Assembly: GCA_964393575.1 (NCBI GenBank)
Contig: CAYMUG010000002.1
Coordinates: forward strand, 341 to 64,340
DNA length: 64,000 bases
DNA from: an uncultured Candidatus Saccharibacteria bacterium
GTDB lineage: Bacteria; Patescibacteriota; Minisyncoccia; Spechtbacterales; 2-12-FULL-38-22
Reading direction: 5' to 3'
A model generated the notes under the pieces. It was not told where the DNA came from and searched no databases. It saw nothing but the letters and a program-made list of their open reading frames with translations. Position 1 is the first letter of the stretch. Each line of letters starts with the position of its first letter. Below are positions 1,343 to 61,835 of the stretch, one piece after another. The position numbers were made by a program, and so were the translations under genes.

Positions 1343-1365
1343 GGTTAGGTCGGCTCCGCCTCACA
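1343..1365 (-). promoter_or_regulatory. conserved 5' leader motif copy (GTGAGGCGGAGCCGA-N-ATG)
   Basis: It matches the leaders upstream of rpmA, mraY, rplI, sodN and sodX. Confidence 0.5.
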
Positions 1366-1427
1366 AAATACTTCAAACACTATAACTATGACTATGACAC
1401 AGCGCTCGTTGCGCGAGCGCATTAATT

Positions 1428-1467
1428 ATCGCGCTTTGCCTGCCGGCAGGCAAAGCGCGATAATGTC
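1428..1467. repeat. perfect 40-bp palindrome attatcgcgctttgcctgcc|ggcaggcaaagcgcgataat
   Basis: Read directly. It belongs to the GCCTGCC...GGCAGGC palindromic element family (also 93-116 and 56055-56100). Confidence 0.7.
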
Positions 1468-1539
1468 ATGGTTATGGTCATTATAATGGTGCGAGCGAAG
1501 CGAGTTGTTAATTATAATCCAATCTTATTATAAAGTTGT

Positions 1540-2523
1540 TTACCTCAGGCGTGAACCTATAATTTGTGGATGGCCTTTTAAAAATTCTTCGGATTTTACA
1601 GGATTTTTGCCCTCAAGTTGCACTTCTTCGGGGACAAAAATACCTTCTCCTGCCTGCACAGCGAATGAATTTTTGTATTTTTTAACAATACCCCGGGAAG
1701 AAGATTTTTTTTGACTTTCAGGGAATTCCGCGCGGCCGTTTAATATTTTAAGTTTTCTATTATTCCAATCAGTATAAATTCCGGGCCAAGGGGTAAAAGC
1801 GCGTAATTTCCTTTCTATAGTTAAGGCGGAACCTGTCCAATCAATTTTTCCGTGGTCACGCAAAATAACACCTGAATACGTAGCGTTTTGATGGTCCTGG
1901 TCCTGAGGGTCTATATTGCCGGAAACCCATTCGGGTATAGTTTCTATGAGCAATTCACCGCCTACGTGCGCTAATACATCACGTAATTCCGGAGCGGTAA
2001 TGTTATCCATTGTTTTATTTTTGTATTTTTGATGGTCGGCATTTGGTAATTCCAAAAGTTGTTGTGCAACTAGCGGTCCGTGGTCTATTTTTTCATCCAT
2101 TAAAATGATACTCACCCCCGTAACTTCATCTCCGTGCAGAATTGTATATTGAATGGGGGAAGGACCACGCCAACGAGGCAAGAGAGAGGGATGAACATTT
2201 AATGTTCCGTGTTCCGGGGCATCTAAAATTTTTTTGGGTAAAATTTTGCCATAATCAGCTACTATAAATAGTGAGTTGTGAGTAGCGATTAGTGAGTGAA
2301 AATCATCATCAAATTTCTCAGGTTGAGTTACTTTTATGCCTTCTTTTTCTGCCGTCAGTTTTACAGGAGGAGAAGTTAACTCCTTTTTTCTGCCGGTAGG
2401 TTTATCGGGCGTGGTCACAACCAAGCCCGGCTTATAACCGTTTTCTATGAGATGTTTTAGAATGATATCGGCAAATTCGGCGGTGCCGAAGAAGATAATG
2501 TTTATTTTATTCGTTTCACTCAT
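1540..2523 (-). CDS. fmt: methionyl-tRNA formyltransferase
   Basis: The N-terminal formyltransferase fold is present (IIFFGT, HPSLLPRWRG), followed by the C-terminal domain. It sits downstream of def. The start is taken at MSETNKIN (2523) rather than at the track's upstream M. Confidence 0.9.
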   Translation of the reverse strand: MSETNKINIIFFGTAEFADIILKHLIENGYKPGLVVTTPDKPTGRKKELTSPPVKLTAEKEGIKVTQPEKFDDDFHSLIATHNSLFIVADYGKILPKKILDAPEHGTLNVHPSLLPRWRGPSPIQYTILHGDEVTGVSIILMDEKIDHGPLVAQQLLELPNADHQKYKNKTMDNITAPELRDVLAHVGGELLIETIPEWVSGNIDPQDQDHQNATYSGVILRDHGKIDWTGSALTIERKLRAFTPWPGIYTDWNNRKLKILNGRAEFPESQKKSSSRGIVKKYKNSFAVQAGEGIFVPEEVQLEGKNPVKSEEFLKGHPQIIGSRLR

Positions 2524-2649
2524 AAAATAGTTACAAGTAACCTGTAACTCGTAACCAGTACAGGAAAGCACCTTCGGTGCTTTGATTTTAGTTCGTTACT
2601 TATTACTTGTTACAGATTACGATTAGAGAAGGGCCGAGGACGGGGTGGT

Positions 2650-3153
2650 TTAGATCCGCTCTGTAAACAGCACTCCGTTTAGATGGTCGGTTTCATGCTG
2701 AAATATACGAGCAAGGAGTCCCGTTGCCTCTACGGTAAATTTGCGTCCATCTTCATTTTGCGCTCTCAGGGTTACTTTATATGATCGGGGAGTAGGGTGA
2801 TATTTGCCTTTAATACTTAAACAACCTTCCTCTACTACCTCTTTATCTTCGCTGTATTCAATAATTTCCGGATTTATATAAACAGAAGGTTGTAGTGGTT
2901 TGAGTAATGATGCAGGAATAAAAATTGTCCTAACTTTAGGCGCGTATTCTTCGGGTATAACAAATACGCTTTTACTTACATTTATTTGAGGTGCAGCTAA
3001 GCCAGCCCCGTCTTCAGCACGCAGGGTTTTTCTCATTTCTTTTATTAAATTTTGAAGGTCAGGACTGTTAAAATCCGTTATTTTTTCTGCGGTTTTATGG
3101 AGAATGGGGTTGGGGTCCTGAACTACCTCCCTGATTTTATTCGTTTCGTTCAT
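2650..3153 (-). CDS. def: peptide deformylase
   Basis: The motifs GAGLAAPQ, EGCLS and HETDH are present. Confidence 0.92.
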   Translation of the reverse strand: MNETNKIREVVQDPNPILHKTAEKITDFNSPDLQNLIKEMRKTLRAEDGAGLAAPQINVSKSVFVIPEEYAPKVRTIFIPASLLKPLQPSVYINPEIIEYSEDKEVVEEGCLSIKGKYHPTPRSYKVTLRAQNEDGRKFTVEATGLLARIFQHETDHLNGVLFTERI

Positions 3154-3205
3154 AAAATAATTTTGAATCGAAAATTAATGAGTCACGCTAAACGTAGCGA
3201 ATTTA

Positions 3206-5134
3206 TTATACCGCATCTTCGGGATCCACGTCTATATCCCAGTCAGAGGGAATTACACGCAGCATCCCGTTTCTTAGTTTTAGGTTTTTATCTTTTCCGG
3301 GCCATTTAATAAGCATATACCAGCTATGTTTACTAGCGACAGTCGGAGAGGGACCCAGTATTTGAATTTTGTTATGCCTCGCGGTAGTTGAATTTTGAGC
3401 TTTCAACTGTTCTATTTGGGTTTCTATTTTTTTCCGCAGAACCTTTGCTTCGTTTTCGGCCTTTTCTGGATTTTTATGGGTGTAACTTAATTTTATAAGC
3501 TGGGAGTAAGGAGGATAATTAAGAGCTTTTCTCTTTTTCAATTCTTCGGAAAAGAATTTTTCAAAATCCTTTTCTTTTGCGTGTTTAAATACATCCATAT
3601 CGGGGTGATACGTTTGTATAATACAATTTTTCTTTGCGATATATTTAAGATGCCACAGTATATTAAATACTTGTTCTTCAGCGTTGTACATAGGAAGGGT
3701 GAGTATTGCATCCTGCATTACCGACGCAGTGATATCAACATCCGGAAGAAGTGAAGGTTTTAAGGCAATATGTGTTCCTATAAGCACGTCCGCCTCATTC
3801 TTAAATGCCCGGAATGCATTATCACGATCTTTTTGAGTGGGTGCAGAATCGGAATCAAGGCGCACTGTTTTTAATTCCGGCATCAGCTTATTTATTTCTT
3901 CAGCAATTTTTTGTGTACCCCCTCCTAATTGTTTAATTCTATAACCTTTACATTTTTCACATACCTGCGGAGGAGTTGTTTTTTTACCACAATGATGGCA
4001 AATAAGCACATGTCCTTTGTGTAATACTAATGCTTTTTCACACTCTGAACATTCTTTGACAAACCCGCAATCTCTGCATACCAAGGCAGACGCCAACCCC
4101 CGTCTGTTTATAAAAAGCAGGGCTTTTTCTCCTGTGTTCATTGTTTTAAGTTGGTTTTGTAGATCTATACTTAGTAAGGAGGTGTTCTTTTCTTTAAGTT
4201 CATTACTCATATCTATGACGCGGGGAGAAACAGTACGGGGCATTTCTTTGTGTATCTCCCATCTTTCTTCATGCGCTTTTTTATATAGTTCCAGAGTAGG
4301 TAAAATATCACCGGTTATAAAATCAGCACCCCTTTTTTCGGCAATTACTCTGCTCACGTATCTTGCATCTATTTTAGGGTGTTGAGTATCCGATTTGTGG
4401 GAAGAATTATTATTTTCATCAAGTATAACAGCACTTAATTTTCTCATAGGAGAGAATATTACCGAGCGTGTACCTGCTAAGTTATTTATTTCTCCTTTGT
4501 ATGATCCTTCCCATAAATTGCGCCACCGGTTGCGCCCGGCATTTTTAGGCAGGGTTTCTACATCTTTTAAAATATTTTTTGCGTTTTTCAGGTTGTAATA
4601 CTCCGGAAAAATTAATAAATTTCCGTCGTCCCCTATATATTTTTTGTAAAGTTTGTTTTTGTGCGGCGATATGATTAGACGTTTTTTAGAAGAGGTTTTA
4701 TTTGTTGCAAACACCGGCTCCGGCAAATCTTCTAACATTTTTAGAAGCGGTTTTGTGGGGGTAGAAAAAAATGGAGGTAACATTCTCTGCATCATAAGTC
4801 CTACCGGTGTATAATAATAGTCCGCCAGATGAACTGCTAAATCCAAAAATTCTTTGCAGAAGATAGGTTTTTTAACTACTGCACGATTAATCTTTTTTAG
4901 TGTAAAACCCGCTTTTCTTATCTCTTGCTTTGCATTTTCCGCCTCCTGCTCTCTGTATATTATACCTTGTATATTTCTTTTACCCACCGGAGCTTCAATA
5001 ATCTGACCTGTATAAAATTTATTCACACTGAAATATGTAAGCATCTGCATGTGGGGGCGCGGTAATTTTGTTAAAGGTATGATTTTATATATATACATAC
5101 GAGCAACGGTATTTCTGTGTTTATATCTTATCAT
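3206..5134 (-). CDS. priA: primosomal protein N' (PriA) homolog with degenerate ATPase motifs
   Basis: The N-terminal 3'-DNA-binding region and the Cys-rich zinc-binding region (CRDCGF..CSECE..CHHCG..CEKCKG) are present and colinear with PriA. Walker A is replaced by SPHKNKL and DEEH by DENN. Confidence 0.8.
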   Translation of the reverse strand: MIRYKHRNTVARMYIYKIIPLTKLPRPHMQMLTYFSVNKFYTGQIIEAPVGKRNIQGIIYREQEAENAKQEIRKAGFTLKKINRAVVKKPIFCKEFLDLAVHLADYYYTPVGLMMQRMLPPFFSTPTKPLLKMLEDLPEPVFATNKTSSKKRLIISPHKNKLYKKYIGDDGNLLIFPEYYNLKNAKNILKDVETLPKNAGRNRWRNLWEGSYKGEINNLAGTRSVIFSPMRKLSAVILDENNNSSHKSDTQHPKIDARYVSRVIAEKRGADFITGDILPTLELYKKAHEERWEIHKEMPRTVSPRVIDMSNELKEKNTSLLSIDLQNQLKTMNTGEKALLFINRRGLASALVCRDCGFVKECSECEKALVLHKGHVLICHHCGKKTTPPQVCEKCKGYRIKQLGGGTQKIAEEINKLMPELKTVRLDSDSAPTQKDRDNAFRAFKNEADVLIGTHIALKPSLLPDVDITASVMQDAILTLPMYNAEEQVFNILWHLKYIAKKNCIIQTYHPDMDVFKHAKEKDFEKFFSEELKKRKALNYPPYSQLIKLSYTHKNPEKAENEAKVLRKKIETQIEQLKAQNSTTARHNKIQILGPSPTVASKHSWYMLIKWPGKDKNLKLRNGMLRVIPSDWDIDVDPEDAV

Positions 5135-5577: not shown

Positions 5578-6531
5578 ATGTTATATATTATGCCTGATAT
5601 AGCCCCACAAGTTATAGTTGTTGTACTAAACTGGAATAACGCTGAAGATACTTTGCAATGTTTAGAGTCCTTGAAGCAAGTTGAATACCAAAGTTTTAAA
5701 GTTATAGTTGTGGACAACGGTTCTAATGATGATTCTCCTAAGGAAATAAAAAGTTTTCTCTACCAAACAAATGCTTATACTTCAGAATTTATCCAGAACT
5801 CCGAAAATTTAGGGTATGGCGGGGGAAATAATGAAGGGATAAGGATTGCTTTGAGAAAAGGGGCGGAATATGTTTTGATTTTAAATAACGATGTATCAGT
5901 TTCCCCCAGGTTTATCAATAAATTAGTAGAAGTAGCTGAGGCCAGAAAAAAAGCAGGGGTTTTGGCACCCTCTATATATTATAAGCGGGAACCTGAAATT
6001 TTGTGGTACGGAGGCCAAGCGCATATCAATTGGAAGAAGGTAGATAAAGAAATGATTAATATGTCTCTTGAAGGTAAAGAGCTTCCGGAGAATGCGCAGG
6101 TCAGGAGGACTGAATTTGTAACCGGAGCTTGTATGTTTGTAAGGAGAGCGGTTTTTGAAGAAGTAGGATTGTTTAGGGATGATTATTTTTTGTATTTTGA
6201 AGATGCTGATTTTTCTGAACGGGTAAAAAGTTCGGGGTGGAATTTGGTGTGGGTGCCCCATGCTAAAGTATGGCACAAGGTTTCGGCGACCAGTAGGGCG
6301 AGTTTGGGTGCGCCGAATATGAACTATTATAATACAAGAAACTCTATGTTGTTTGTGCGGAGGCATGGACCGGCTTGGGCAGGGTGGTATATACATTTGT
6401 GGGCTTACTTAAAATATATTAAACAAATAACTAAGCTTGTATTTTCCAGAAAATATAACCCGGAAACATCCAGGGCTGTATTAAGAGCAATAAAGGATTA
6501 CTATGGAAACAACTTAGGCAAATATAGTTAA
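5578..6531 (+). CDS. family 2 glycosyltransferase
   Basis: GT-A fold motifs are present (VVVLNWNN, VDNGSNDDS, a DxD-like motif). Confidence 0.8.
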   Translation: MLYIMPDIAPQVIVVVLNWNNAEDTLQCLESLKQVEYQSFKVIVVDNGSNDDSPKEIKSFLYQTNAYTSEFIQNSENLGYGGGNNEGIRIALRKGAEYVLILNNDVSVSPRFINKLVEVAEARKKAGVLAPSIYYKREPEILWYGGQAHINWKKVDKEMINMSLEGKELPENAQVRRTEFVTGACMFVRRAVFEEVGLFRDDYFLYFEDADFSERVKSSGWNLVWVPHAKVWHKVSATSRASLGAPNMNYYNTRNSMLFVRRHGPAWAGWYIHLWAYLKYIKQITKLVFSRKYNPETSRAVLRAIKDYYGNNLGKYS

Positions 6532-6654
6532 GCTCACTCCGTTCCGACTTAACGTAGGAACTCCGTTCACACTATTACAATAACCATAACCATTACATTA
6601 TTGCGCGAAGCGCAATAATTCACAATTCTTGATTCATGATTCTTAATTCTTTTT

Positions 6655-7815
6655 ATGAGCGCAGCGAATAAAATAAAAGTAGCCATAGATTGCCATAAAT
6701 TAGAAGATAAAACCGGAGCCCATAGAGCCGGTATAGGCAGACATCTATACCGTTTTCTTGAAGAGGCATCAAAACAAAAAGAACTTGAAGGCAAATTCAA
6801 ATTTTATTTGTATTTTAAAAGCGGAGTACCAAAAGACATACCTTTTTTGCAGGAGAAAATATTTGTTAACAAAGTAGCAAAACTACCTTTCTTTTTTCCG
6901 TTTTTCCGCCCCTCTTTTAATGTATTTTTTCATATAGCTATACCTATTTTAGCGTTAAAAGACAGAATAGACGTTGCGTTTTTCGCTTCGTTTATGCACC
7001 CCGCATTTTATATAGGCAAAACCGCAGTTGTTTTGACAAACGATATCTACTATGAATCCTCGCAACGCAGTCAACCGCTAAAATACCGCATAGGTTATAA
7101 ACTTTTTGCCACGTGGGCAGCCAAACGAGCTACAACCATAACCACGCAAACATATGCATCACGCAAAGAAATATCCAGATGTTATAATGTGCCTGAAGAT
7201 AAAATTATAGTTGTGCCTTTGGGGGCGGATTTTACAGAATTTACGCCGGAGGATAACGAAAAAGACAACTATATTTTATATGTGGGTCAAGCGTTCCCAC
7301 GTCGACATCTTCGCGAAACTATAAATGCGTTCAGGATTATTGCACCTGAATTTCCTCAACTGAAATTTATTGCAGTAGGATTAGATAAGTATAATCCTCC
7401 CATCATCGATGATTTGGCAAAAAAAACCAACAAAGAACTGGGGGAGGAAAGGGTGATAAGGAAAGAATCTGTTTCCGACGAAGAATTAAAGGAATTATAT
7501 AGAAAGGCACAAACATTTGTATATATTTCTTCTTCGGAAGCAATGGGCTTACCTCCACTTGAAGCCCTCGCTTCCGGCACTGTTCCTGTCGTTGCTGATA
7601 CACCCACTACCAATGAAATATTTGAAGATAAAGCGTTTTTTGTAGAGAATACAGAAAGCCCCCCAGCAATAGCGGAAAAAATAAAGAGATCAATTACAGA
7701 TAATGATAGAAGAAATTATATTCTGCAGAACAAAGATAAGATTTTACAAAAGTACACATGGAAAAAACACACCGATAAAATGTTGGAATTATTTAAGCAT
7801 ACCGTTCAAAAATAA
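6655..7815 (+). CDS. GT1/GT4-type glycosyltransferase
   Basis: The C-terminal EAMGLPPLEALASGTVPVV motif is typical of GT-B retaining transferases. Confidence 0.8.
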   Translation: MSAANKIKVAIDCHKLEDKTGAHRAGIGRHLYRFLEEASKQKELEGKFKFYLYFKSGVPKDIPFLQEKIFVNKVAKLPFFFPFFRPSFNVFFHIAIPILALKDRIDVAFFASFMHPAFYIGKTAVVLTNDIYYESSQRSQPLKYRIGYKLFATWAAKRATTITTQTYASRKEISRCYNVPEDKIIVVPLGADFTEFTPEDNEKDNYILYVGQAFPRRHLRETINAFRIIAPEFPQLKFIAVGLDKYNPPIIDDLAKKTNKELGEERVIRKESVSDEELKELYRKAQTFVYISSSEAMGLPPLEALASGTVPVVADTPTTNEIFEDKAFFVENTESPPAIAEKIKRSITDNDRRNYILQNKDKILQKYTWKKHTDKMLELFKHTVQK

Positions 7816-9413: not shown

Positions 9414-9580
9414 TAACCGACAACCCACAACTAACAACTAACAACTAACAACAAATGACAAATGACAAAAGAACAGATTAACAGATTAACATAATAAAAA
9501 TCCTAAATTCTAATACCTAAATCCTAAACAAATTCAAAATTCAAATGTTCTAAATTCTAAACCGTTTTGAATTTTATATT
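9401..9580. repeat. low-complexity intergenic block of short tandem repeats (caactaa x3, caaatga x2, cagattaa x2, ctaaattctaa x2, aattcaaa x2)
   Basis: Read directly. Related short repeats occur at 2600-2625, 28036-28052, 60722-60745 and 60810-60835. Confidence 0.6.
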
Positions 9581-9689
9581 TTAGTCATTTGATATTGTTT
9601 AGAGTTTAGTGTCGTTTTGAAATTAGAATTTTGTGAAAGCAGTAAACCCTGCACCTGTTCCTTCGGAAAGGTGAGGGACAGATAAAATT

Positions 9690-13096: not shown

Positions 13097-14050
13097 TTGT
13101 ATATGAATTTTACCGAAATGTATAAAGAGGCAGTGCGCTTGGGCATGGAAGCGGATCCACGAGGCAGGGAAGCGCCTCAAAAAACACTGCAAGAAAATAA
13201 AAATAAATACGAAGGGTCTTCGGAAAAAGATAAAGAATTTTTTGATACAGAAGGTCTTGAAAATCCCTATCCGGATACAAGGATACTCTATCGCCCGGAA
13301 GAAGATCCTGATATTAAAAAAATAATAGCGGGTATTGATATAGATGCCGGAGAGTTACAGGTTGCAAAAGCTATGCAGGACATAGACGCTGTATTTTCTC
13401 ACCACCCCCGAGGAAAAGCATTGGCTTCTTTAGGCGAAGTTATGCCTATGCAGGCAGAGATATTGAATATGTATGGTGTACCCATAAATGTAGCCGAAGC
13501 TCTTCTTGAAAAAAGAATCTCGGAAGTATCGAGAGGTCTTTCTCCGGGAAACCATTTTCGTTCTGTAGATATTGCCCGTTTACTGCATATGCCTTTTGCA
13601 TGTACTCATACTGTAACGGACAATATGGCGTACCAATTCCTTAAAAAAGAAGTGGAAGATAAAGAACCTGAAAAAGTTGGAGATATTTTTGATATGCTTT
13701 TGGATGTCCCCGAATACAAAAAAGCTGAAAATATGGGTCTCGGTCCTAAATTATTTTCCGGCAAAAAAGAAAATAGAGCAGGCAAAATTGCGGTTACCGA
13801 AGTAACCGGAGGAACTGAAGGCGCTAAAGATATTTATGAAAAAATGGCAAATGCAGGCGTGGGAACAATTATAGCCATGCATCAGTCAGAACAACACAGA
13901 GAAAATGCGGAAAAAGCACACATTAATGTTATAATCTCGGGACATATGAGTTCCGATTCTATGGGTATGAATCAATTATTGGATTATTATGAAAGAAATG
14001 GTATAGGTGTGGTCCCTGCAGGTGGTTTAATAAGAGTATCGCGCAATTAA
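13097..14050 (+). CDS. Nif3-like dinuclear metal-centre protein (tentative)
   Basis: Motifs HHP, CTHTVTDN (AHTxxD-like) and a C-terminal ISGHMSSD (GHY-like) are present. The N-terminus is atypical. Confidence 0.45.
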   Translation: MYMNFTEMYKEAVRLGMEADPRGREAPQKTLQENKNKYEGSSEKDKEFFDTEGLENPYPDTRILYRPEEDPDIKKIIAGIDIDAGELQVAKAMQDIDAVFSHHPRGKALASLGEVMPMQAEILNMYGVPINVAEALLEKRISEVSRGLSPGNHFRSVDIARLLHMPFACTHTVTDNMAYQFLKKEVEDKEPEKVGDIFDMLLDVPEYKKAENMGLGPKLFSGKKENRAGKIAVTEVTGGTEGAKDIYEKMANAGVGTIIAMHQSEQHRENAEKAHINVIISGHMSSDSMGMNQLLDYYERNGIGVVPAGGLIRVSRN

Positions 14051-14135
14051 GCTCACCGCCACCGGCGGTTCGCACATTTGACCATTAACCATTGACAGAT
14101 ATACTTACACCGCAAGCATCAAAGGTCAAAGGTTA

Positions 14136-14165
14136 AATGTTTTTGTGAACGTAGCGAACAAAATT
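14136..14165 (+). promoter_or_regulatory. conserved 5' leader motif copy (GTGAACGTAGCGAACAAAATT-ATG)
   Basis: Same motif family as upstream of rpmA, mraY, sodN and sodX. Confidence 0.5.
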
Positions 14166-14615
14166 ATGAAAGTTATATTATTAAAAGACGTAAAAAATTT
14201 AGGAAAACAGGGTGATGTAAAAGAAGTAAAAAACGGTTACGCCCGCAATTTTCTCATTCCACAGGGTCTGGCCAAAGCTGCCACAAAGAGCGCATTAAAA
14301 CAACACGAAAACGAATTAAAGTTTCGTGAAGAAAAGGGCATGCAAGAACTTAAGGAAGTTGAGAAATTAGCGGAGCAACTGGAGGGTCATGAAGTTATGA
14401 TCAAAGAAAAAGCTAACGAAGAAGGTAAATTATACGCTGCAGTTGACGAGGAAAAGATAAAAGAGGTTCTTGGCAATGAAAACACTACGATAAAAGCGGA
14501 ATGGGTGAAGTTGGACAAAAAAATAAAAGAAACAGGGGAGTATGAGGTTAAATTAGAATTTGACCATGGCATTGAAGCAAATATCAAAGTTATAATAGAA
14601 AAAAAGGAAGAATAG
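14166..14615 (+). CDS. rplI: 50S ribosomal protein L9
   Basis: The N-terminus [32 protein letters not shown] matches L9. The start is taken at the second ATG on the basis of the leader-motif alignment. Confidence 0.85.
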
Positions 14616-16418: not shown

Positions 16419-16456
16419 AAAAAGGTCGGCTAAACCAATGGTTTAGCCGACCTTTG
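16419..16456. terminator. bidirectional terminator hairpin aggtcggctaaacc-aa-tggtttagccgacct
   Basis: It lies between convergent pyrG and rpmA. A paralogous copy is at 57081-57126. Confidence 0.65.
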
Positions 16457-16482
16457 TTCACCAAGAAAAGATGTAGAGATTG

Positions 16483-16755
16483 TTATAACACTTCTATAAC
16501 CGTTGCTTTTCTTTGAGTGCCGTCAAATTTTGTTTTCCGTATTTTTTTGAAGTGCACTACACCTTGACGCTTTGCATATAAGGTGTCGTCAGCACCTATG
16601 CGTACATTTTGCCCGGGTATATACTTTGTGCCTCTTTGACGCACAAGAATCATTCCTGCTTGTGCTTTTTGACCGCTAAATAATTTTACGCCCAAGCGCT
16701 TAGATGCTGAATCTCTTCCTAGTTTTGTTGATCCTGATGCTTTTGTTTTCGCCAT
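16483..16755 (-). CDS. rpmA: 50S ribosomal protein L27
   Basis: Conserved L27 core ([26 protein letters not shown]). Confidence 0.9.
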
Positions 16756-16885
16756 GATTATTTGTTCGGCTCCGCCTCACAAAAACATTTGACAATTGAC
16801 TTTTAACCTTTGACTGTGCTCGTTTTGCGAGCGCTCGGAAGATCGCGGGACGATTTTGTCAGGAGTCAGGTGTCGAATGTTAGAT
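16756..16885 (-). repeat. copy A of a ~130-bp intergenic leader/promoter element (leader motif + GCGCTCG-N-CGAGCGC palindrome + 4 heptad TGTCA-like repeats)
   Basis: It is about 88% identical to 36047-36172, which lies upstream of mraY. Confidence 0.7.
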
Positions 16886-16937
16886 GTGCTGGTAGAGTGA
16901 GCTTGCCGAAGGATTGTATTAATGCTATTTTATTCTC

Positions 16938-23463: not shown

Positions 23464-23500
23464 AAAAACTCGGTTCAATCTATAGGTTGAGCCGAGTTTT
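23464..23500. terminator. terminator hairpin actcggttcaatc-tata-ggttgagccgagt (paralog of 1047-1084)
   Basis: The stem is nearly identical to the copy at 1053-1081. Confidence 0.6.
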
Positions 23501-23587
23501 GTGTTTATATATAACACTCATATAAAACTATGGCTGATGCAATTAAATATGTAGACACAGGAAAAAATTTGTGTTATTATAAATACA

Positions 23588-24601: not shown

Positions 24602-24627
24602 ATATGACAAATTTTTAATATAATTTT

Positions 24628-24656
24628 AAACCCGCGCTGTTTCGCGCGGGTTTTTT
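24628..24656. terminator. terminator hairpin aaacccgcgc-tgtttc-gcgcgggttt + T6
   Basis: A near-identical copy at 25094-25121 points to local duplication. Confidence 0.6.
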
Positions 24657-25005
24657 AGGAACCTTTATATTTACCTCTTAATTTGTTTATAATTTTTCTT
24701 AGTTTTTCTGTTGTTTTGTAATATAGTTCTTTTATGGCTTGTGCTATAATCACACACAGCCCACCGAGAATAACCGCAACCAGTCCGGCAGCAAACAAAA
24801 TGCCTGAGGTATTATAGCTTATCTCCTCGCCATTGATAAGCGTAATCACGCCTGCAACTAACACGCTAAGTAAAGTATCATCGCTTATCTCTACCCCCAA
24901 GAATAGCATGGATAAATAAGTTAACTCTTTCCATACCTCAAAAAATAACAGTATATAAATCAGAAGAAGTACCACAATTATTAATCTGCACATCCACCGA
25001 ACCAT
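24655..25005 (-). CDS. small membrane protein, divergent member of the tandem two-TM paralog array
   Basis: Hydrophobic helices and a C-terminal IxELYxK-like motif are shared with the neighbours. Confidence 0.5.
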   Translation of the reverse strand: MVRWMCRLIIVVLLLIYILLFFEVWKELTYLSMLFLGVEISDDTLLSVLVAGVITLINGEEISYNTSGILFAAGLVAVILGGLCVIIAQAIKELYYKTTEKLRKIINKLRGKYKGS

Positions 25006-25093
25006 CCAACCTCCTTTTGTAGAAGAACTAATTATATGATATCAACTATATTGTCACTTTGCCATACAGACAGACCACCTTTTAAAAAATTTT

Positions 25094-25121
25094 AAACCCG
25101 CACTGTTTCGCGCGGGTTTTT
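25094..25121. terminator. duplicate of the aaacccgcrc-tgtttc-gcgcgggttt hairpin
   Basis: It differs from 24628-24653 at one position. Confidence 0.55.
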
Positions 25122-25149
25122 AAGAGCGTTTAGTTTATTTATTAGTTTT

Positions 25150-26259: not shown

Positions 26260-27210
26260 TTATTCTTCTCCGTTTTCACCGTGGAGTTTTTTGTGTATTT
26301 CTTTCAGGCGCTTGTTGGTTACGTGGGTGTAAACCTGGGTTGTAGCTATATTTTTATGACCCAAAAATTCCTGTACTGTTCGCAGGTCAGCCCCTTTAGA
26401 GAGTAGGTCGGTGGCAAATGTGTGGCGCAGAACATGCGGGGTAACATTAACCGGCAGAGCTGCCATTTTAGCGTAACGATTAATCGCGTTTTGTATGTAA
26501 CGCGGAGACAGGCGCTTGTCTTTGTTTTTAGAGCGATAGTTTATAAATAGCGGTTTTTCCATATCCGTGCGGGTGTTGTCATATTCTTTCATCCATTTTA
26601 AAGCTCTGGGTGAAAAGAACACCGTACGGGGTCTCTCGCCCTTGCCGGTTATATTAAGCTCCAGTGTATTTTCAACCTGCCTCAAGTTAATTTGTTCCCG
26701 GTCCAAATTCACAAGTTCCGCAATACGCATTCCCGTAGAAAACAACACTTCCATAATAGCACGATCCCGCAGGCCTGCGCGTGTATTGGTGTCCGGCATT
26801 GAAAGAAGCTTTTCTACTTGCTCCCCGGTTAAAAATTTAACGGAATCTTTGTCCGTTCCCTTGGGCAGCTTTATTTTAGTTGAGGGGAGGGAGTTTATAT
26901 CACGGTCGGCAAAATAATCCAAAAGGGCTCTTAGCGATACAAGATAGTAATTCTGTGTTTTTCGGGAGAGATTTTGATTGTCCCGTGTTTTATATTTGCG
27001 CGCAAGGAACAACCTATAATTCCATACCTCCTCTGCCGTTAGCTGGTGGGGGAGTAAATCTTCTTTTTTCTCGTCCCGCAGCCATTTTTTAAAAGTTTCC
27101 AGGTATCTTTGATAGTTTTCCTGGGTTTTATTACTCAAACCTTTTTCTATTTCACAGTAATCCAGAAAATCAGGTATATGTTGCATAATTGTTTTTTTTG
27201 ATTTTTGCAT
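26260..27210 (-). CDS. tyrosine recombinase, XerC/XerD family
   Basis: An N-terminal core-binding region is present, together with R...HVLRHTFAT...LGHKNIATTQVYTHV catalytic motifs. The start is taken at MQKSKK. Confidence 0.8.
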   Translation of the reverse strand: MQKSKKTIMQHIPDFLDYCEIEKGLSNKTQENYQRYLETFKKWLRDEKKEDLLPHQLTAEEVWNYRLFLARKYKTRDNQNLSRKTQNYYLVSLRALLDYFADRDINSLPSTKIKLPKGTDKDSVKFLTGEQVEKLLSMPDTNTRAGLRDRAIMEVLFSTGMRIAELVNLDREQINLRQVENTLELNITGKGERPRTVFFSPRALKWMKEYDNTRTDMEKPLFINYRSKNKDKRLSPRYIQNAINRYAKMAALPVNVTPHVLRHTFATDLLSKGADLRTVQEFLGHKNIATTQVYTHVTNKRLKEIHKKLHGENGEE

Positions 27211-27355
27211 AAGGGGAGTAGAAGAATTAGTTATATGAATAGGTTCGCACAATATAGGTAAAGCGAATTATGTACTTCTTTTTATTATATATACACACTT
27301 TTTTATAGTCAAACCCTATTTATCCTTAAATATATTTATAGATAATATAATAATT

Positions 27356-36046: not shown

Positions 36047-36172
36047 AGATTTGTTCGGCTTCGCCTCCAAAAACATTTAACAATTGACTTTTAACTTTTG
36101 ACTGCGCTCGCTTTGCGAGCGCCCGGAAAATCGCAAAACGATTTTGTCAGGAGTCAGATGTCAAATGTCAGC
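36047..36172 (-). repeat. copy B of the ~130-bp leader/promoter element
   Basis: It matches 16756-16885, sharing the leader motif, the GCGCTCGCTTTGCGAGCGC palindrome and the heptads TGTCAGG/AGTCAGA/TGTCAAA/TGTCAGC. Confidence 0.7.
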
Positions 36173-36187
36173 TGGGCGGAGCGAGCT

Positions 36188-37369
36188 TTATTCTTTCCAG
36201 ATATACGCCTTTTTTACCCAGTTTAAAAGATTTCGTGTGGCTTCCACTCTATCCTTAGCGTTAAGCGTGGCTACTACCAAGTACTTTTGTTTATTGGGGG
36301 TTTCAGAAAGTACAGTCATAGAAGGACCAGCTTCTTCCGTAAATCCTGTTTTTCCGGCAACTACACCATCGTAAGCATCCAATAGTGCGTTTAAGTTTAT
36401 CCAATAGTGCGTAATATCTTTATTGCTTACTTCCACCGTGGCGTTGGGTTGATTTAAAATCTCCCGTAGCACCTCGTTCTCCCATGCGGCGTACATAATC
36501 TGTGCCACCTCATGGGCTGTAGATATATTTTTTTCGTTTAAACCGGTAGGATCTTCAAAGGAGGTGTTCGTGAGGTTTAACTCTCCTGCTTTTCTGTTCA
36601 TTAATTCTACAAAAGACGGACCTCCTCCGGAGTTATTATTTTCGTCATAATAAGTTTGGAGGGCAACACCGGCATCATTACTGCTTTCAAGGAGTAATGC
36701 TTGCAAAAGTTGTTTTGTGGTCAGCTTTTCACCCTCTATTAACCCCGCTGAATTTCCTCTTGTTTCTATTGCCTCTTCCTGTACTGTTATTTGTTCGTTA
36801 AGATCTAAATTATCCACTACTACCATTGCCGTTACAAGCTTAGAGATGCTGGCAATAGGTCTTGGTTCAGAAATATTTTTACCATACAAAATTCTTTTAG
36901 AGGGAACATCCATGGCAATTGCTGATTCTGCATTTATATCTTTAAACTTTACCCCCCAATTTCTTGCCGGTAAAAGTTCGGGCCGTGAATTAGCTCTTAT
37001 AAAACCCGTAAGAGAAGTTCTGATTTCAGTTGTTTGAGGTAAAAATGCCGGTTTTGTTTTGTATTGTTCCAGGAACTTTTCTCTTTCAGTAAGGCGCAGA
37101 CCTGATAAATGCACCTTCTCTCCTTCCGATTGTTTTTCTCCCGCCCCTTCTTCTGCCTGAGGAGCAACCCTAAGAGATGCAGCCCAATCTTTAACTGTTT
37201 GGTTGCCGTAATACAAAAACCCTAATAACAAAAGCGGAAAAATAACAGCAACAGTAATAATGCTGGCCTTTTTTCTGTGCCTTTTTATGATGTTTGTACT
37301 TTCTCTTACACGGCTTTTTACGAATCTGGCCCGTGCATCAGCTGAATATTTAAGTTTTTTTGTGTCCAT
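36188..37369 (-). CDS. D-alanyl-D-alanine carboxypeptidase (S11, PBP5/6-like)
   Basis: SISKL (SxxK), SGN-like and KTG motifs, with an N-terminal TM. Confidence 0.8.
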   Translation of the reverse strand: MDTKKLKYSADARARFVKSRVRESTNIIKRHRKKASIITVAVIFPLLLLGFLYYGNQTVKDWAASLRVAPQAEEGAGEKQSEGEKVHLSGLRLTEREKFLEQYKTKPAFLPQTTEIRTSLTGFIRANSRPELLPARNWGVKFKDINAESAIAMDVPSKRILYGKNISEPRPIASISKLVTAMVVVDNLDLNEQITVQEEAIETRGNSAGLIEGEKLTTKQLLQALLLESSNDAGVALQTYYDENNNSGGGPSFVELMNRKAGELNLTNTSFEDPTGLNEKNISTAHEVAQIMYAAWENEVLREILNQPNATVEVSNKDITHYWINLNALLDAYDGVVAGKTGFTEEAGPSMTVLSETPNKQKYLVVATLNAKDRVEATRNLLNWVKKAYIWKE

Positions 37370-55123: not shown

Positions 55124-55435
55124 TTACTTATTACTATCAATTACCTTCCCCACAATATCAAGACGGGTTACGGGGCCAAAGTGCCTGCTGTCAGTGCTGT
55201 TTTTGTAATTATCTCCTTCTACAAAATACTGTGATCCGCTTTTACGAACTATCCTTTTCATCATTCGAATAGTTTTATTTCCGGGATGTTTAATTACAAC
55301 TACATCGCCTACGTCGGGTTTTGTAAATAAATAAGCAAGGCGACTTACTAACACTTCATCCCCCTGCTTATATTCGGGTTCCATACTTTTACCCTTAACC
55401 GTATAACGAAAGATTGGAGAAAATTTAGAGGCCAT
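55124..55435 (-). CDS. sodX: S26 signal-peptidase-like NiSOD maturation protease
   Basis: GKSMEP (Ser), a KR motif and GDNYKNSTDSRHFG are present. It lies immediately downstream of sodN. The start is placed at MASKFS (55435), which is preceded by the leader motif. Confidence 0.65.
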   Translation of the reverse strand: MASKFSPIFRYTVKGKSMEPEYKQGDEVLVSRLAYLFTKPDVGDVVVIKHPGNKTIRMMKRIVRKSGSQYFVEGDNYKNSTDSRHFGPVTRLDIVGKVIDSNK

Positions 55436-55466
55436 TGTTTTGTTCACTGCGTTCACAAAATCGTAA
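55436..55466 (-). promoter_or_regulatory. conserved 5' leader motif copy (GTGAACGCAGTGAACAAAACA-ATG)
   Basis: Leader motif family. Confidence 0.45.
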
Positions 55467-55499
55467 CCCGTATTACTTATTACGGCGAGCGTAGTAAAC

Positions 55500-55955
55500 T
55501 TATTTAGCTTGATTCTCCATATTTTTACGGACCGCATCGTAATCATATCCTTCTTTTGTGCGTGCAAATGCTTCACCTACTTCATCCACACACTCAAGAA
55601 GATGTTGCGCATCTTTTTCTTCTACCGTTTTTTTTGCCTGGCCGGCGGCCTTTGTAGCCCTCCAGAATAAATCGTGAATATCGGTTCCCCCCGCTTCTTC
55701 CAGATGATGCGGTTTAAAGTAATCCGTCCAAAGAACCCACAAGTGATGCTTAACGTATTCTGCTCTTTCCTCTTTAATTAAAAGCGCGCGTTGCTTTTCT
55801 ACATCACTTTCAGAATTATGATAAATTTTAACCGCATTATAGACGCTTTGCGCTTCAATGCGTGCCTGTGCGGGATCATATACTCCACAGAAAAGGTCGC
55901 AATGAGCATACACATCTCCTGCGTCTATTAGTTTTGAGATAAGATTCTTAAACAT
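55500..55955 (-). CDS. sodN: nickel superoxide dismutase precursor (leader + HCDLFCGVY Ni-hook)
   Basis: HCDLFCGVYDPAQARIEAQSV...HHLWVLWTDYFKP aligns along NiSOD. The leader peptide precedes His1. Confidence 0.85.
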   Translation of the reverse strand: MFKNLISKLIDAGDVYAHCDLFCGVYDPAQARIEAQSVYNAVKIYHNSESDVEKQRALLIKEERAEYVKHHLWVLWTDYFKPHHLEEAGGTDIHDLFWRATKAAGQAKKTVEEKDAQHLLECVDEVGEAFARTKEGYDYDAVRKNMENQAK

Positions 55956-55985
55956 AATTTTGTTCACTGCGCTCACAAAGTAATA
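55956..55985 (-). promoter_or_regulatory. conserved 5' leader motif copy (GTGAGCGCAGTGAACAAAATT-ATG)
   Basis: Leader motif family. It is nearly identical to the rplI leader. Confidence 0.45.
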
Positions 55986-56150
55986 ATGCGAATGATGCTA
56001 ATTTTTATGCGAATGATACGAATTGTTTTTGGTTTAATTCGCGGCATTCGCATGCCTGCCTGCAAAAGCGAGGCGGCGGGCAGGCATTCGTGTCATACAA
56101 TTCATGATATTCGCATTATTATAAAGCGAGCGAAGCAAGTATTAATTATA
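55986..56150. repeat. composite palindromic intergenic element (outer IR taataatgcgaat.../...attcgcattatta; inner GCCTGCC...GGCAGGC palindrome; 3' block related to 1470-1515)
   Basis: Read directly. Confidence 0.55.
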
Positions 56151-57080: not shown

Positions 57081-57126
57081 AAAAAGGTCGGCTAAATCAT
57101 AGATTTAGCCGACCTTTTTTATTTTT
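57081..57126. terminator. bidirectional terminator aggtcggctaaatc-atag-atttagccgacct + T-tract (paralog of 16419-16456)
   Basis: Read directly. Confidence 0.65.
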
Positions 57127-59104: not shown

Positions 59105-59156
59105 GCCATAGTTCTCGGCGAGGCGTTGAGTGTAACGAAACGCCGAGACTTTAGAA

Positions 59157-60734: not shown

Positions 60735-60926
60735 ATGACTTATGACAAGCTACCATAAACTGTAATGCGTAATATGTAACAAGACCGAAGCGCCGAAGGC
60801 GCTTCCCGTACGGATTACTAGTTACAGATTACAGATTACGATTTTGTTTGATTATTCTCTTATTTTATATACTAACATATAAAACGAAAGCGGCCCGAAG
60901 AAGATCGGACCGCGTAAGTACTTGGA

Positions 60927-61721: not shown

Positions 61722-61835
61722 TATACCTCCTTCGGTCGGCAGGTTAATTGTATAATTTATAACACAAAGCGAACAAAAATTCCAGATTTGCCGTACTATT
61801 TTAATTTAGCGAAAAATATAGTAAAAAGAAAGAAT

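Follow-up and report, generated by a model that had tools for sequence, protein, structure and literature searches.

Patescibacteria (the Candidate Phyla Radiation, CPR) have tiny genomes and almost no spacer DNA. Little is known about their expression signals and their non-autonomous mobile DNA. Here we describe a repeated intergenic element, and the short motif that ends it beside gene starts, in a stretch of 64,000 nucleotides (the window) from an uncultured Candidatus Saccharibacteria bacterium (Spechtbacterales in GTDB; assembly GCA_964393575.1, contig CAYMUG010000002.1). Several described systems resemble it. The Correia elements of Neisseria (CREE, NEMIS) are alike in being non-coding, 100-160 nt long, with terminal inverted repeats and dispersed intergenic copies (PMC2649163, PMC2229807, PMC10969869). 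They are likewise present or absent between related genomes, lie beside gene starts, form long hairpins if transcribed, and have a (possible) effect on the expression of the adjacent gene. The repetitive extragenic palindromic (REP) sequences and REPINs, which RAYT transposases mobilise, share with it an imperfect palindrome of 20-30 nt, paired in inverted orientation around a spacer, extragenic and in multiple copies (PMC8049555). Putative mobile promoters are homologous segments before unrelated genes (PMC3488235). Finally, GCGNAGC mini-hairpins and the promoters of the phage N4 virion RNA polymerase have in common with the motif a C-G-closed GNA triloop, a sheared G.A pair, inverted repeats and an A/T tract (PMC13037366, PMC4496689). 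GCGNAGC/GNA-triloop mini-hairpins are extraordinarily stable in single-stranded DNA (PMC13037366). In the N4 promoter, it is the template strand that carries the GNA loop, with its centre at -11, and the phage polymerase reads it (PMC4496689).

The motif is the right inverted-repeat end of a family of elements similar to MITEs (transposable elements of the miniature inverted-repeat type) and REPINs, specific to Spechtbacterales-type Patescibacteria. The 64 kb contain nine start-adjacent copies and one split copy, where the chance expectation is 0. The sequence GTGARCGYAGYGAAC has exact matches at 14145-14159 (+), 55962-55976 (-) and 55442-55456 (-), compared with no match in 100 dinucleotide-preserving shuffles. 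A longer form, GTGAGGCGGAGCCGAAC, occurs at 16764-16780 (-) with no mismatch, at 1348-1364 (-) with one and at 36053-36069 (-) with three (shuffle mean 0.08). These shuffle controls rule out a chance origin of the motif.

The six copies had been reported in the initial annotation as leaders before start codons. All of them are present, with the ATG 2-5 nt past the motif end, at rplI, sodN, sodX (an S26-type peptidase), rpmA and mraY, as identified with Pfam, and at an open reading frame (ORF) of 67 amino acids (orf67). Nevertheless, six was too low a count, and the conserved unit is longer than was described. Mismatch-tolerant and repeat searches gave three further full copies, at a GT4 glycosyltransferase gene, def and fmt. 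They have ATG in place of GTG, and that ATG is the start codon. The split copy, before a GT2 gene, had also been missed. On the other hand, a partial copy placed at 3178 turned out to be an inverted motif, AACGTAGCGAAT, at 3191-3202 (+), which is the left inverted repeat of the def element. Another partial copy, upstream of rnr, does contain the 3' half of the motif. It is only a half-motif and a doubtful remnant. Every window copy is sense-oriented and placed at a gene start. Searched with a profile, the window gave the six short copies at E<1e-4. The split copy and the long forms at rpmA and orf67 were weakly recovered (E = 5.5-35, among chance-level matches), and the mraY copy was not recovered. 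The L9 and L27 Pfam profiles start at residue 1-2 of the ATG-initiated proteins.

The motif belongs to a larger structure. It is the gene-proximal inverted-repeat end of imperfectly palindromic intergenic elements of 52-211 nt, which lie wholly in the interval between a stop and a start codon and contain no ORF. Their left end carries the motif in inverted form, (T)TAA-GCTCGCTYCGC(TCGC), and frequently shares bases with the stop codon of the preceding gene. Left boxes (AAGCTCGCTYCGC...; at def, AAATTCGCTACGTT) are the reverse complement of the motif core, although the repeats are imperfect. They are located at or just after the upstream stop, as TAA-GCTCACCGCC at rplI, TAA-GCTCACTCCG at GT4 and TAAA-GCTCGCTCCGCC at mraY. 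In whole-element folds, the left box pairs with the motif. The arms are AT-rich, with periodic repeats of 6-8 nt that are copy-specific and pair with each other. Some elements also have nested GC-rich palindromes, such as TGCCTGCCGGCAGGCA or GCGCTCG...CGAGCGC. The upstream regions of rpmA, mraY and orf67 can be aligned over ~150 nt, together with the more distant one of rplI. Between the rpmA and mraY elements, identity is 87% across 110 nt, so that highly similar segments precede non-homologous genes, as in the putative mobile promoters. The orf67 and GT4 elements share a 46-nt 5' segment with 83% identity.

The conserved unit is an imperfect palindrome of 25-27 nt, (T)A-TTT[G/A]T-GA-N(C/T)-GNA-(G/A)N-GA-A[C/T]AAA-AT, which includes (T)ATTT at its upstream side and AAAT at its downstream side. 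Pairs form between positions 1-5 and 17-21, between the upstream and the downstream A-T, between 8 and 14, and between 9 and 13. Positions 6/16 and 7/15 are invariant G.A and A.G, and the loop is a C-G-closed GNA. The same hairpin is predicted for every copy. Pairs were counted in 19 copies, of which the window provided six and related loci thirteen. Standard pairs fill 93.6% of the cells, and five of the nine pairs show changes on both sides. Pair 4-18 is G-C or A-U, 8-14 is A-U, G-C, C-G or G.U, and 9-13 is C-G or U-A. The covariation score was 0.301 compared with 0.137 after shuffling (0/500), and at most 0.06 with the partners slid. The GTG..AAC and ATG..AAT forms differ by a compensatory change. 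The G4-to-A substitution of the ATG variants comes with C18-to-T, which means that the signature is structural and not coding. A generic descriptor (stem-GA-xx-GNA-xx-GA-stem) had 8 matches against 1.5 expected. The exact heptamers GCGCAGC, GCGGAGC or GCGAAGC are inside several copies.

The distribution in relatives was compared at orthologous sites (loci outside the window are given by L numbers where needed). The nearest L9 orthologues belong to Candidatus Spechtbacteria/Spechtbacterales and are 50-55% identical, so the window comes from a deep-branching relative of Spechtbacterales. The gene order priA-GT2-GT4-wzy-GT2-lytR-ctpB-(NIF3)-rplI-(pyrG)-rpmA is kept in five syntenic loci of three relatives. 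In these loci, and in the three closest L9 contigs (55%), the motif is absent at the orthologues of rplI, rpmA, GT4, def and fmt. Conservation upstream of orthologues, which the initial annotation had put forward as a test, thus fails for the window genes in their nearest relatives. The junctions of the relatives are short or overlapping. The divergent gap between rpmA and orf106 has 28 nt in them and 182 nt in the window. Likewise, GT2a and GT4 overlap by 4 nt in relatives, whereas a 123-nt gap separates them in the window.

A scan of species-representative genomes was too degenerate, and gave mostly chance or coding matches (M-[SN]-E-x-N-K N-termini) in unrelated phyla. Among the matches listed, one GT2 gene from Spechtbacterales (L030) shares the architecture seen in the window. 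When metagenome contigs were scanned more strictly, 24 loci were obtained. About half of them show periodic repeats, the motif, 0-4 nt and the ATG of a long ORF. They include groEL (L128), five ugd orthologues starting MNI(C)IIGTGYV, and three further ORFs. One metagenome copy ends 2 nt before a tRNA-Glu(CUC). No motif match was found among viral contigs.

The groEL-bearing organism is a member of Spechtbacterales (GroEL 83% identical to Ca. Spechtbacteria RIFCSPLOWO2_12_FULL_38_22). We fetched groEL loci irrespective of the motif. Three groES-groEL sites were filled (L150, L149, L153) and three were empty (L148 and L151, both with 83% identical GroEL, and L152). The L149 copy is split, with the left box AAGCTCGCTCCGCC and the module TGCCTGCCGGCAG as in the window. 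The L153 copy is a reduced TTTGC-GAA-GCAAA form. L149 has further copies before groES, surA and dnaJ. The HrcA operator CIRCE (TTAGCA...N9...TGCTAA) lies upstream of groES in Spechtbacterales (L149:9330-9400, L153:9455-9490, L150:9500-9540). It is separate from the motif and different in sequence, and an identity of the two was rejected. In L149 and L153, the whole element is between promoter plus CIRCE and the groES ATG. It is therefore a transcribed leader there and not a promoter. Elements interrupt ancestral operons, and they contain no canonical terminators. Being multi-copy, shared across Spechtbacterales, patchy per site and host to small nested hairpins, the family behaves as a non-autonomous repeat element.

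The orientation of the element is strict. In all co-directional cases, the left box is toward the upstream stop codon and the motif toward the downstream gene. The distance from the motif AAA to the gene 5' end is 0-6 nt in 22 of 23 cases, or else the ATG is at motif positions 4-6. In the long spacers (orf67, sodN, and groES and surA of L149), the element is still on the start-codon side. Sense positions within 6 nt of a start are ~0.3% of the window and ~3% of its intergenic DNA, so this placement is not neutral. We also flipped the element in silico. The opening energy of the -4 to +13 start region rose in 7 of 9 cases, and its mean from 2.8 to 4.0 kcal/mol. This predicted effect modestly supports the view that only the right end, which is A-rich and locally self-contained, is compatible with initiation.

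The motif can be part of the gene. GT4, def and fmt have 4-5 extra N-terminal residues from the motif (five in GT4), and the ancestral ATG aligns with its last AAA. As read from these alignments, the motif supplies the start codon of the three genes. The initial annotation had stated that it overrides the Shine-Dalgarno (SD) placement. This has little meaning here, because a strong SD is present in ~14 of 56 window genes and about three quarters have none. Several starts are 7-10 nt past a -10 box (e.g. 23588, 5578). Leaderless or near-leaderless mRNAs, as these sequences suggest, may be common in the window genome.

Table. Coordinates of motif copies and whole elements in the window.
Feature	Positions	Strand	Motif core	Details
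Motif copy, short form, rplI	14139..14165	+	14142-14162	ends 3 nt before rplI ATG at 14166
Motif copy, sodN	55956..55982	-	55959-55979	ends 3 nt before sodN ATG at 55955
Motif, ATG variant, fmt	2503..2529	-	2506-2526	fmt start is the motif ATG at 2523; preceded by a hairpin of GTTACNN heptamer repeats
Split copy before GT2 gene	9630..9689	+		TTTGTGAAAGCAGTAAAC, 36-nt GC-rich hairpin insert (9648-9683) after GAAC, then AAAATT; ATG 9690
Doubtful rnr remnant	61769..61780	+		3' half-motif GCGAACAAAAAT only; downstream of TGTATAAT -10 box
Whole element, rplI	14049..14165	+		left box AAGCTCACCGCC 14049-14060 overlaps TAA of the NIF3-like gene; long hairpin made by periodic AT-rich arms
Whole element, sodN	55956..56141	-		left box CTTGCTTCGCTCGC 56126-56139; GC-rich palindrome; periodic arms
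Short element (64 nt) filling sodN-sodX spacer	55436..55499	-	55439-55459	3 nt before sodX ATG at 55435
Element, rpmA	16756..16904	-	16761-16783 (long form)	5 nt before ATG at 16755; left box AAGCTCACTCTACC 16891-16904
Element filling mraY spacer	36047..36188	-	36050-36072 (degenerate long form)	ATG 36046; left box AAGCTCGCTCCGCC 36175-36188 abuts upstream stop
Element, orf67 (67-aa ORF)	1343..1506	-	1345-1367 (long form, 3' stem decayed)	ATG 1342; left box ACTCGCTTCGCTCGC 1491-1505
Element filling GT2a-GT4 spacer	6530..6675	+	6652-6672 (ATG variant)	left box AAGCTCACTCCG 6530-6541 overlaps upstream TAA; GT4 start is ATG 6655
Mini-element (52-nt spacer), def	3133..3205	-	3136-3156 (ATG variant)	left inverted repeat 3191-3202; def start is ATG 3153

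We propose that the motif is a repeat-element end which, as RNA, forms a hairpin with an A-rich tail and is kept in the polarity that leaves the start open. We give this explanation somewhat better than even odds (about 0.55). The element would be transcribed as part of a 5' leader or an intercistronic RNA. Its right end would fold into an A/U stem of 5-7 bp, tandem G.A/A.G, 2-3 bp and a C-G-closed GNA triloop. This hairpin would end 0-6 nt before the gene 5' end, or hold the AUG in its 5' arm (def, fmt, GT4). One polarity would survive, since the right end gives an open, A-rich, SD-less start context, normal in these genomes, and can donate a start codon. The GC-rich left end would occlude the start. 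We infer that the element is transcribed in the window as it is in L149 and L153, that the family spread by transposition or recombination, and the way in which it is copied. The hairpin probably acts on the RNA, through insulation or accessibility of the start region, stability of the 5' untranslated region (UTR) and possibly processing.

Several observations weigh against this proposal. Copies outside the window were found with patterns that fix much of the motif, so part of the conservation is an ascertainment effect. However, pair 8-14 was unfixed in every search pattern, and the covariation of 4-18 is visible inside the window alone. The mini-hairpin is weak in nearest-neighbour models (-1 to -8 kcal/mol). 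Antisense folds are more stable than sense folds in 10 of 15 elements, and therefore the long hairpin has no G.U signature of selection on sense RNA. The internal arms are wholly different between most copies, unlike those of young MITE families, and the ugd-type copies have no obvious left box. Pfam found no transposase or RAYT (Y1 transposase) among the window proteins, only a syntenic XerC/D-like recombinase (26260-27252), so mobility is read from the distribution alone. No target-site duplication was established. The flanks are AT-rich, (A)ATTAA on the left and AAAATTA on the right, with a possible AATTA repeat at rplI that is inconsistent elsewhere, and the relatives are too diverged to rebuild empty sites. 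Finally, a translation-related role leaves the copy abutting tRNA-Glu unexplained, which argues that the role is not purely translational.

This tRNA copy keeps alive the idea that the right end is a portable module for gene 5' ends, fixing the functional 5' end of the RNA that follows, through directed processing or an unconventional kind of initiation. We consider it unlikely, and rate it below the hairpin proposal because the ATG variants hold the start codon inside the hairpin. If it were true, the module would make near-leaderless mRNAs and trimmed pre-tRNA. One copied cassette would then rewire groES-groEL, def-fmt, the GT clusters and the dcw cluster into separately controlled units. 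A decidedly unlikely rival makes the right end a portable promoter: an outward core promoter would initiate transcription at the [A/G]TG, inside the motif or immediately past it. The ATG variants would then have leaderless mRNAs, the other genes leaders of 0-25 nt and the pre-tRNA a short leader. The tight 0-6 nt spacing for both ORFs and the tRNA agrees with this, and interrupted ancestral operons would need new promoters. Correia elements and putative mobile promoters are precedents (PMC2649163, PMC3488235). Moreover, a conserved T-A-T before TTT makes a -10-like TATTTT, with a Y-R step (C9-G10) seven nt downstream. In this hexamer, A is at -2 in 21 of 27 copies and T at -1 in 25 of 27. Nevertheless, these bases are conserved because they pair with the downstream A-T. 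At neither candidate register is there a -35 signal (at least 4/6 matches in 22-36%, background 14%), nor a TG extension. We accordingly rejected a sigma-70 promoter, whether its -10 is placed at TATTTT or lies 6 nt ahead of [A/G]TG. With a -10 at TATTTT, transcription would also begin too far downstream to include the ATG required by def, fmt and GT4. An internal promoter in L149 and L153 would escape control by HrcA. Canonical TTGACA/TATAAT promoters do exist elsewhere in the window. A consensus promoter scan gave promoter-like sites at about the shuffle rate, 58 compared with 48. The initial annotation had suggested, among other possibilities, the 3' end of a mobile promoter-bearing repeat. 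A repeat end is what fits best, given the unrelated genes, the near-identical rpmA and mraY segments, the empty sites and the presence or absence at groEL. It is the promoter that finds no support.

Could the sites act in DNA only? The palindrome would then be a transposase or recombinase site, or a shared operator, with no RNA role, and its position at starts would reflect insertion tolerance in tiny spacers. An inversion at both ends is what transposase sites have, GNA-triloop hairpins are exceptionally stable in single-stranded DNA (PMC13037366), antisense folds equal or exceed the sense ones, and with spacers of 0-50 nt in relatives any insertion lands near a start. However, neutral tolerance does not predict a polarity with only the right end toward the downstream gene, nor an element on the start-codon side of long spacers. 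In the ugd-type copies, the right motif is retained and no left box can be recognised, and the transposase is missing from the window proteins. We find this quite improbable. A binding site for a common regulator, as had been suggested, is also unlikely: the half-sites keep non-complementary GA/GA steps, as in a single-strand hairpin and unlike a duplex operator, and the gene set is patchy between relatives. A processing signal, in which hairpin and A-rich tail guide an endonuclease (RNase E/G/Y- or III-like) to cut beside the gene, seems very improbable. It would separate cistrons and give near-leaderless mRNAs and a trimmed pre-tRNA. The spacing for ORFs and tRNA fits, elements begin and finish at the stop and start codons of the cistrons beside them, and RNase III could plausibly cleave the long helices between the terminal inverted repeats, as it has been reported to do with Correia elements (PMC2649163, PMC2229807). 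On the other hand, sense helices are no better than antisense, and in def, fmt, GT4 and L030 a cut after the motif would sever the start codon held in the 5' arm. Hardly credible is a dedicated signal for translation initiation, or an N-terminal peptide M-[NS]-[AEV]-[ATV]-N-K-I from an in-frame [A/G]TG. The GTG is in frame with the ATG in three short copies (rplI, sodN, sodX), the ATG variants start there, and the motif genes have no SD. But most window genes lack an SD irrespective of the motif, which led us to reject an SD substitute. In our SD test, the short-form copies gave duplex energies of -0.4 to -1.9 kcal/mol, and the long form has GGAG, but 12-14 nt upstream. A split SD brought closer by the hairpin was discarded, as the spacing is inconsistent among copies. 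The coding peptide was rejected too. Long variants are out of frame at rpmA and orf67, homology of L9 and GroEL starts at the downstream ATG, the C/T at the third position of the 'N' codon covaries, as a structural signature, with the initial base of [A/G]TG, and one copy precedes a tRNA. Initiation, another suggestion of the initial annotation, is thus weakened by this copy and by the SD-less norm, while a leader RNA hairpin stays compatible with the data.

Other known hairpins were compared. In a terminator, the T tract would follow the hairpin; here it is upstream and the A tract downstream, and canonical terminators are found elsewhere in the genome. An N4-type hairpin promoter was also rejected, with the GNA loop and the A tract on the sense and not the template strand. 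Rfam had no window match at the gathering score and none at E<=1 for two elements, and in 18 related loci it found only tRNAs.

Further observations concern the elements and their surroundings. A nickel superoxide dismutase gene, sodN, and the gene for its maturation peptidase, sodX, are present in this Patescibacterial genome (55124-55955, -), each with its own motif copy. In the split copies (window 9648-9683, L149:9951-9994, L149:~4275-4300), a GC-rich hairpin is inserted at nearly the same place, after GAAC or GTGAGCG. Independent splits so close together suggest that the element is itself the target of another small one. Inside elements, a palindromic GC-rich module, TGCCTGCC(N)GGCAGGCA, occurs at 1436-1460 and 56040-56075 (-) in the window and at L149:9825-9850. 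This recurrence suggests a sub-module that moves or recombines on its own. The intergenic DNA is rich in imperfect tandem repeats whose period is 6-8 nt, as at 9427-9560, 2585-2640, 60740-60830 and 6560-6650, and in L125:1-720 and L073:2540-3990. Their units vary by spacer (ACAACTA, AATGACA, GTAATCT, GTTACAG, ATTCTTG, GTCAAAG), and they form both arms of the element hairpin. Similar repeats occur in related metagenome contigs and in a goat-rumen 'Clostridia' metagenome-assembled genome (MAG). Distinct from the element, near-identical bidirectional terminator-like hairpins lie at 1048-1087, 16419-16458, 23464-23503 and 57081-57120, and at 24614-24658 and 25080-25124. Their families are AAAAAGGTCGGCTAAACC...GGTTTAGCCGACCTTT and AAACCCGCGC...GCGCGGGTTTTT.

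A hairpin of like design (5-bp stem, GA, GT-GTA-AC, GA, stem) is present at 59123-59143 (+), with a GC-rich stem GCGTT/AACGC, antisense between two minus-strand genes. The 'Clostridia bacterium' MAG RGIG1642 and a Ca. Enterocola MAG, despite being distant taxa, have an architecture like that of the window: heptamer repeats, TATTTTATGA-CTGAAAG-GAATAAAAT, 4 nt and an ATG. These copies (L073:2513-2535 and 3768-3790, L092:~3204, L079:~3498) precede paralogous zinc-ribbon genes (MKxCPxC). Multi-copy families with the same 23-nt core, TTTGTGA-NCGNAGN-GAACAAAAT, also exist in phyla that are unrelated, where the context differs. Such families are found in Methanimicrococcus, where a T run follows the core (L019, L021, L034, L038, L040, L048, L067, L076), in Treponema (L004, L017, L033, L091, L101), in Flavobacteriaceae (L009, L015, L023, L056, L103, L107, L140) and in Nanoarchaeota-type genomes (L005, L010, L051, L083). 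Further core-bearing loci are L007, L020, L099, L112, L131, L135 and L143. In flavobacteria and DPANN archaea, the core is at the tip of longer hairpins, and CPR/DPANN MAGs have a 'gaagt...ttgg' family. None of these families of unrelated phyla is in Rfam. They may have come to use a very stable hairpin cap by convergence, or share the end of a widespread repeat element.

The element has consequences for these compact genomes. Through it, spacers of 0-50 nt grow to 50-200 nt, classical operons (groES-groEL, for example) are broken up, and donated start codons rewrite N-termini. At gene starts, one of its ends is under apparent constraint. For annotation, it explains mis-called starts (GTG vs ATG; extensions of 4-7 residues) and marks true gene 5' ends. 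It is a tractable case of selfish repeats becoming, or being filtered into, parts of 5' UTRs in SD-poor genomes. Its hairpin, with tandem G.A and a GNA triloop, is defined enough for tests on initiation, stability or processing.

Full-text literature searches on MITEs in the Candidate Phyla Radiation and on the motif sequences gave no description of such elements in Patescibacteria. Compared with known systems, the elements are small and non-coding like MITEs, with terminal inverted repeats, ten dispersed copies in 64 kb (some near-identical) and filled and empty sites. As in REP/REPIN families, an imperfect palindrome of 20-40 nt is present as two inverted units that form a larger hairpin. 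However, REPs and REPINs are usually downstream of genes, in 3' untranslated regions, or between convergent genes, whereas all copies here abut the 5' end of the downstream gene. The spacers of the copies here are much longer and more variable, and the 64-kb window has no RAYT gene. With Correia/NEMIS there is no sequence relation, and the TA duplication and IHF site of those elements are not demonstrated here. The window elements differ from them by strict polarity, with an end 0-6 nt from the start, by a GA/GNA mini-hairpin end that can supply the start codon, by hypervariable periodic arms and by a Patescibacterium host. Unlike putative mobile promoters, promoter activity is disfavoured, and in relatives the element is downstream of promoter and CIRCE. 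In contrast to N4, it is cellular housekeeping genes that have the GNA loop here, on their sense strand. The element thus resembles known MITEs and REPINs in kind. What is new is its sequence, its host, its strict start-abutting polarity and its GA/GNA mini-hairpin end.

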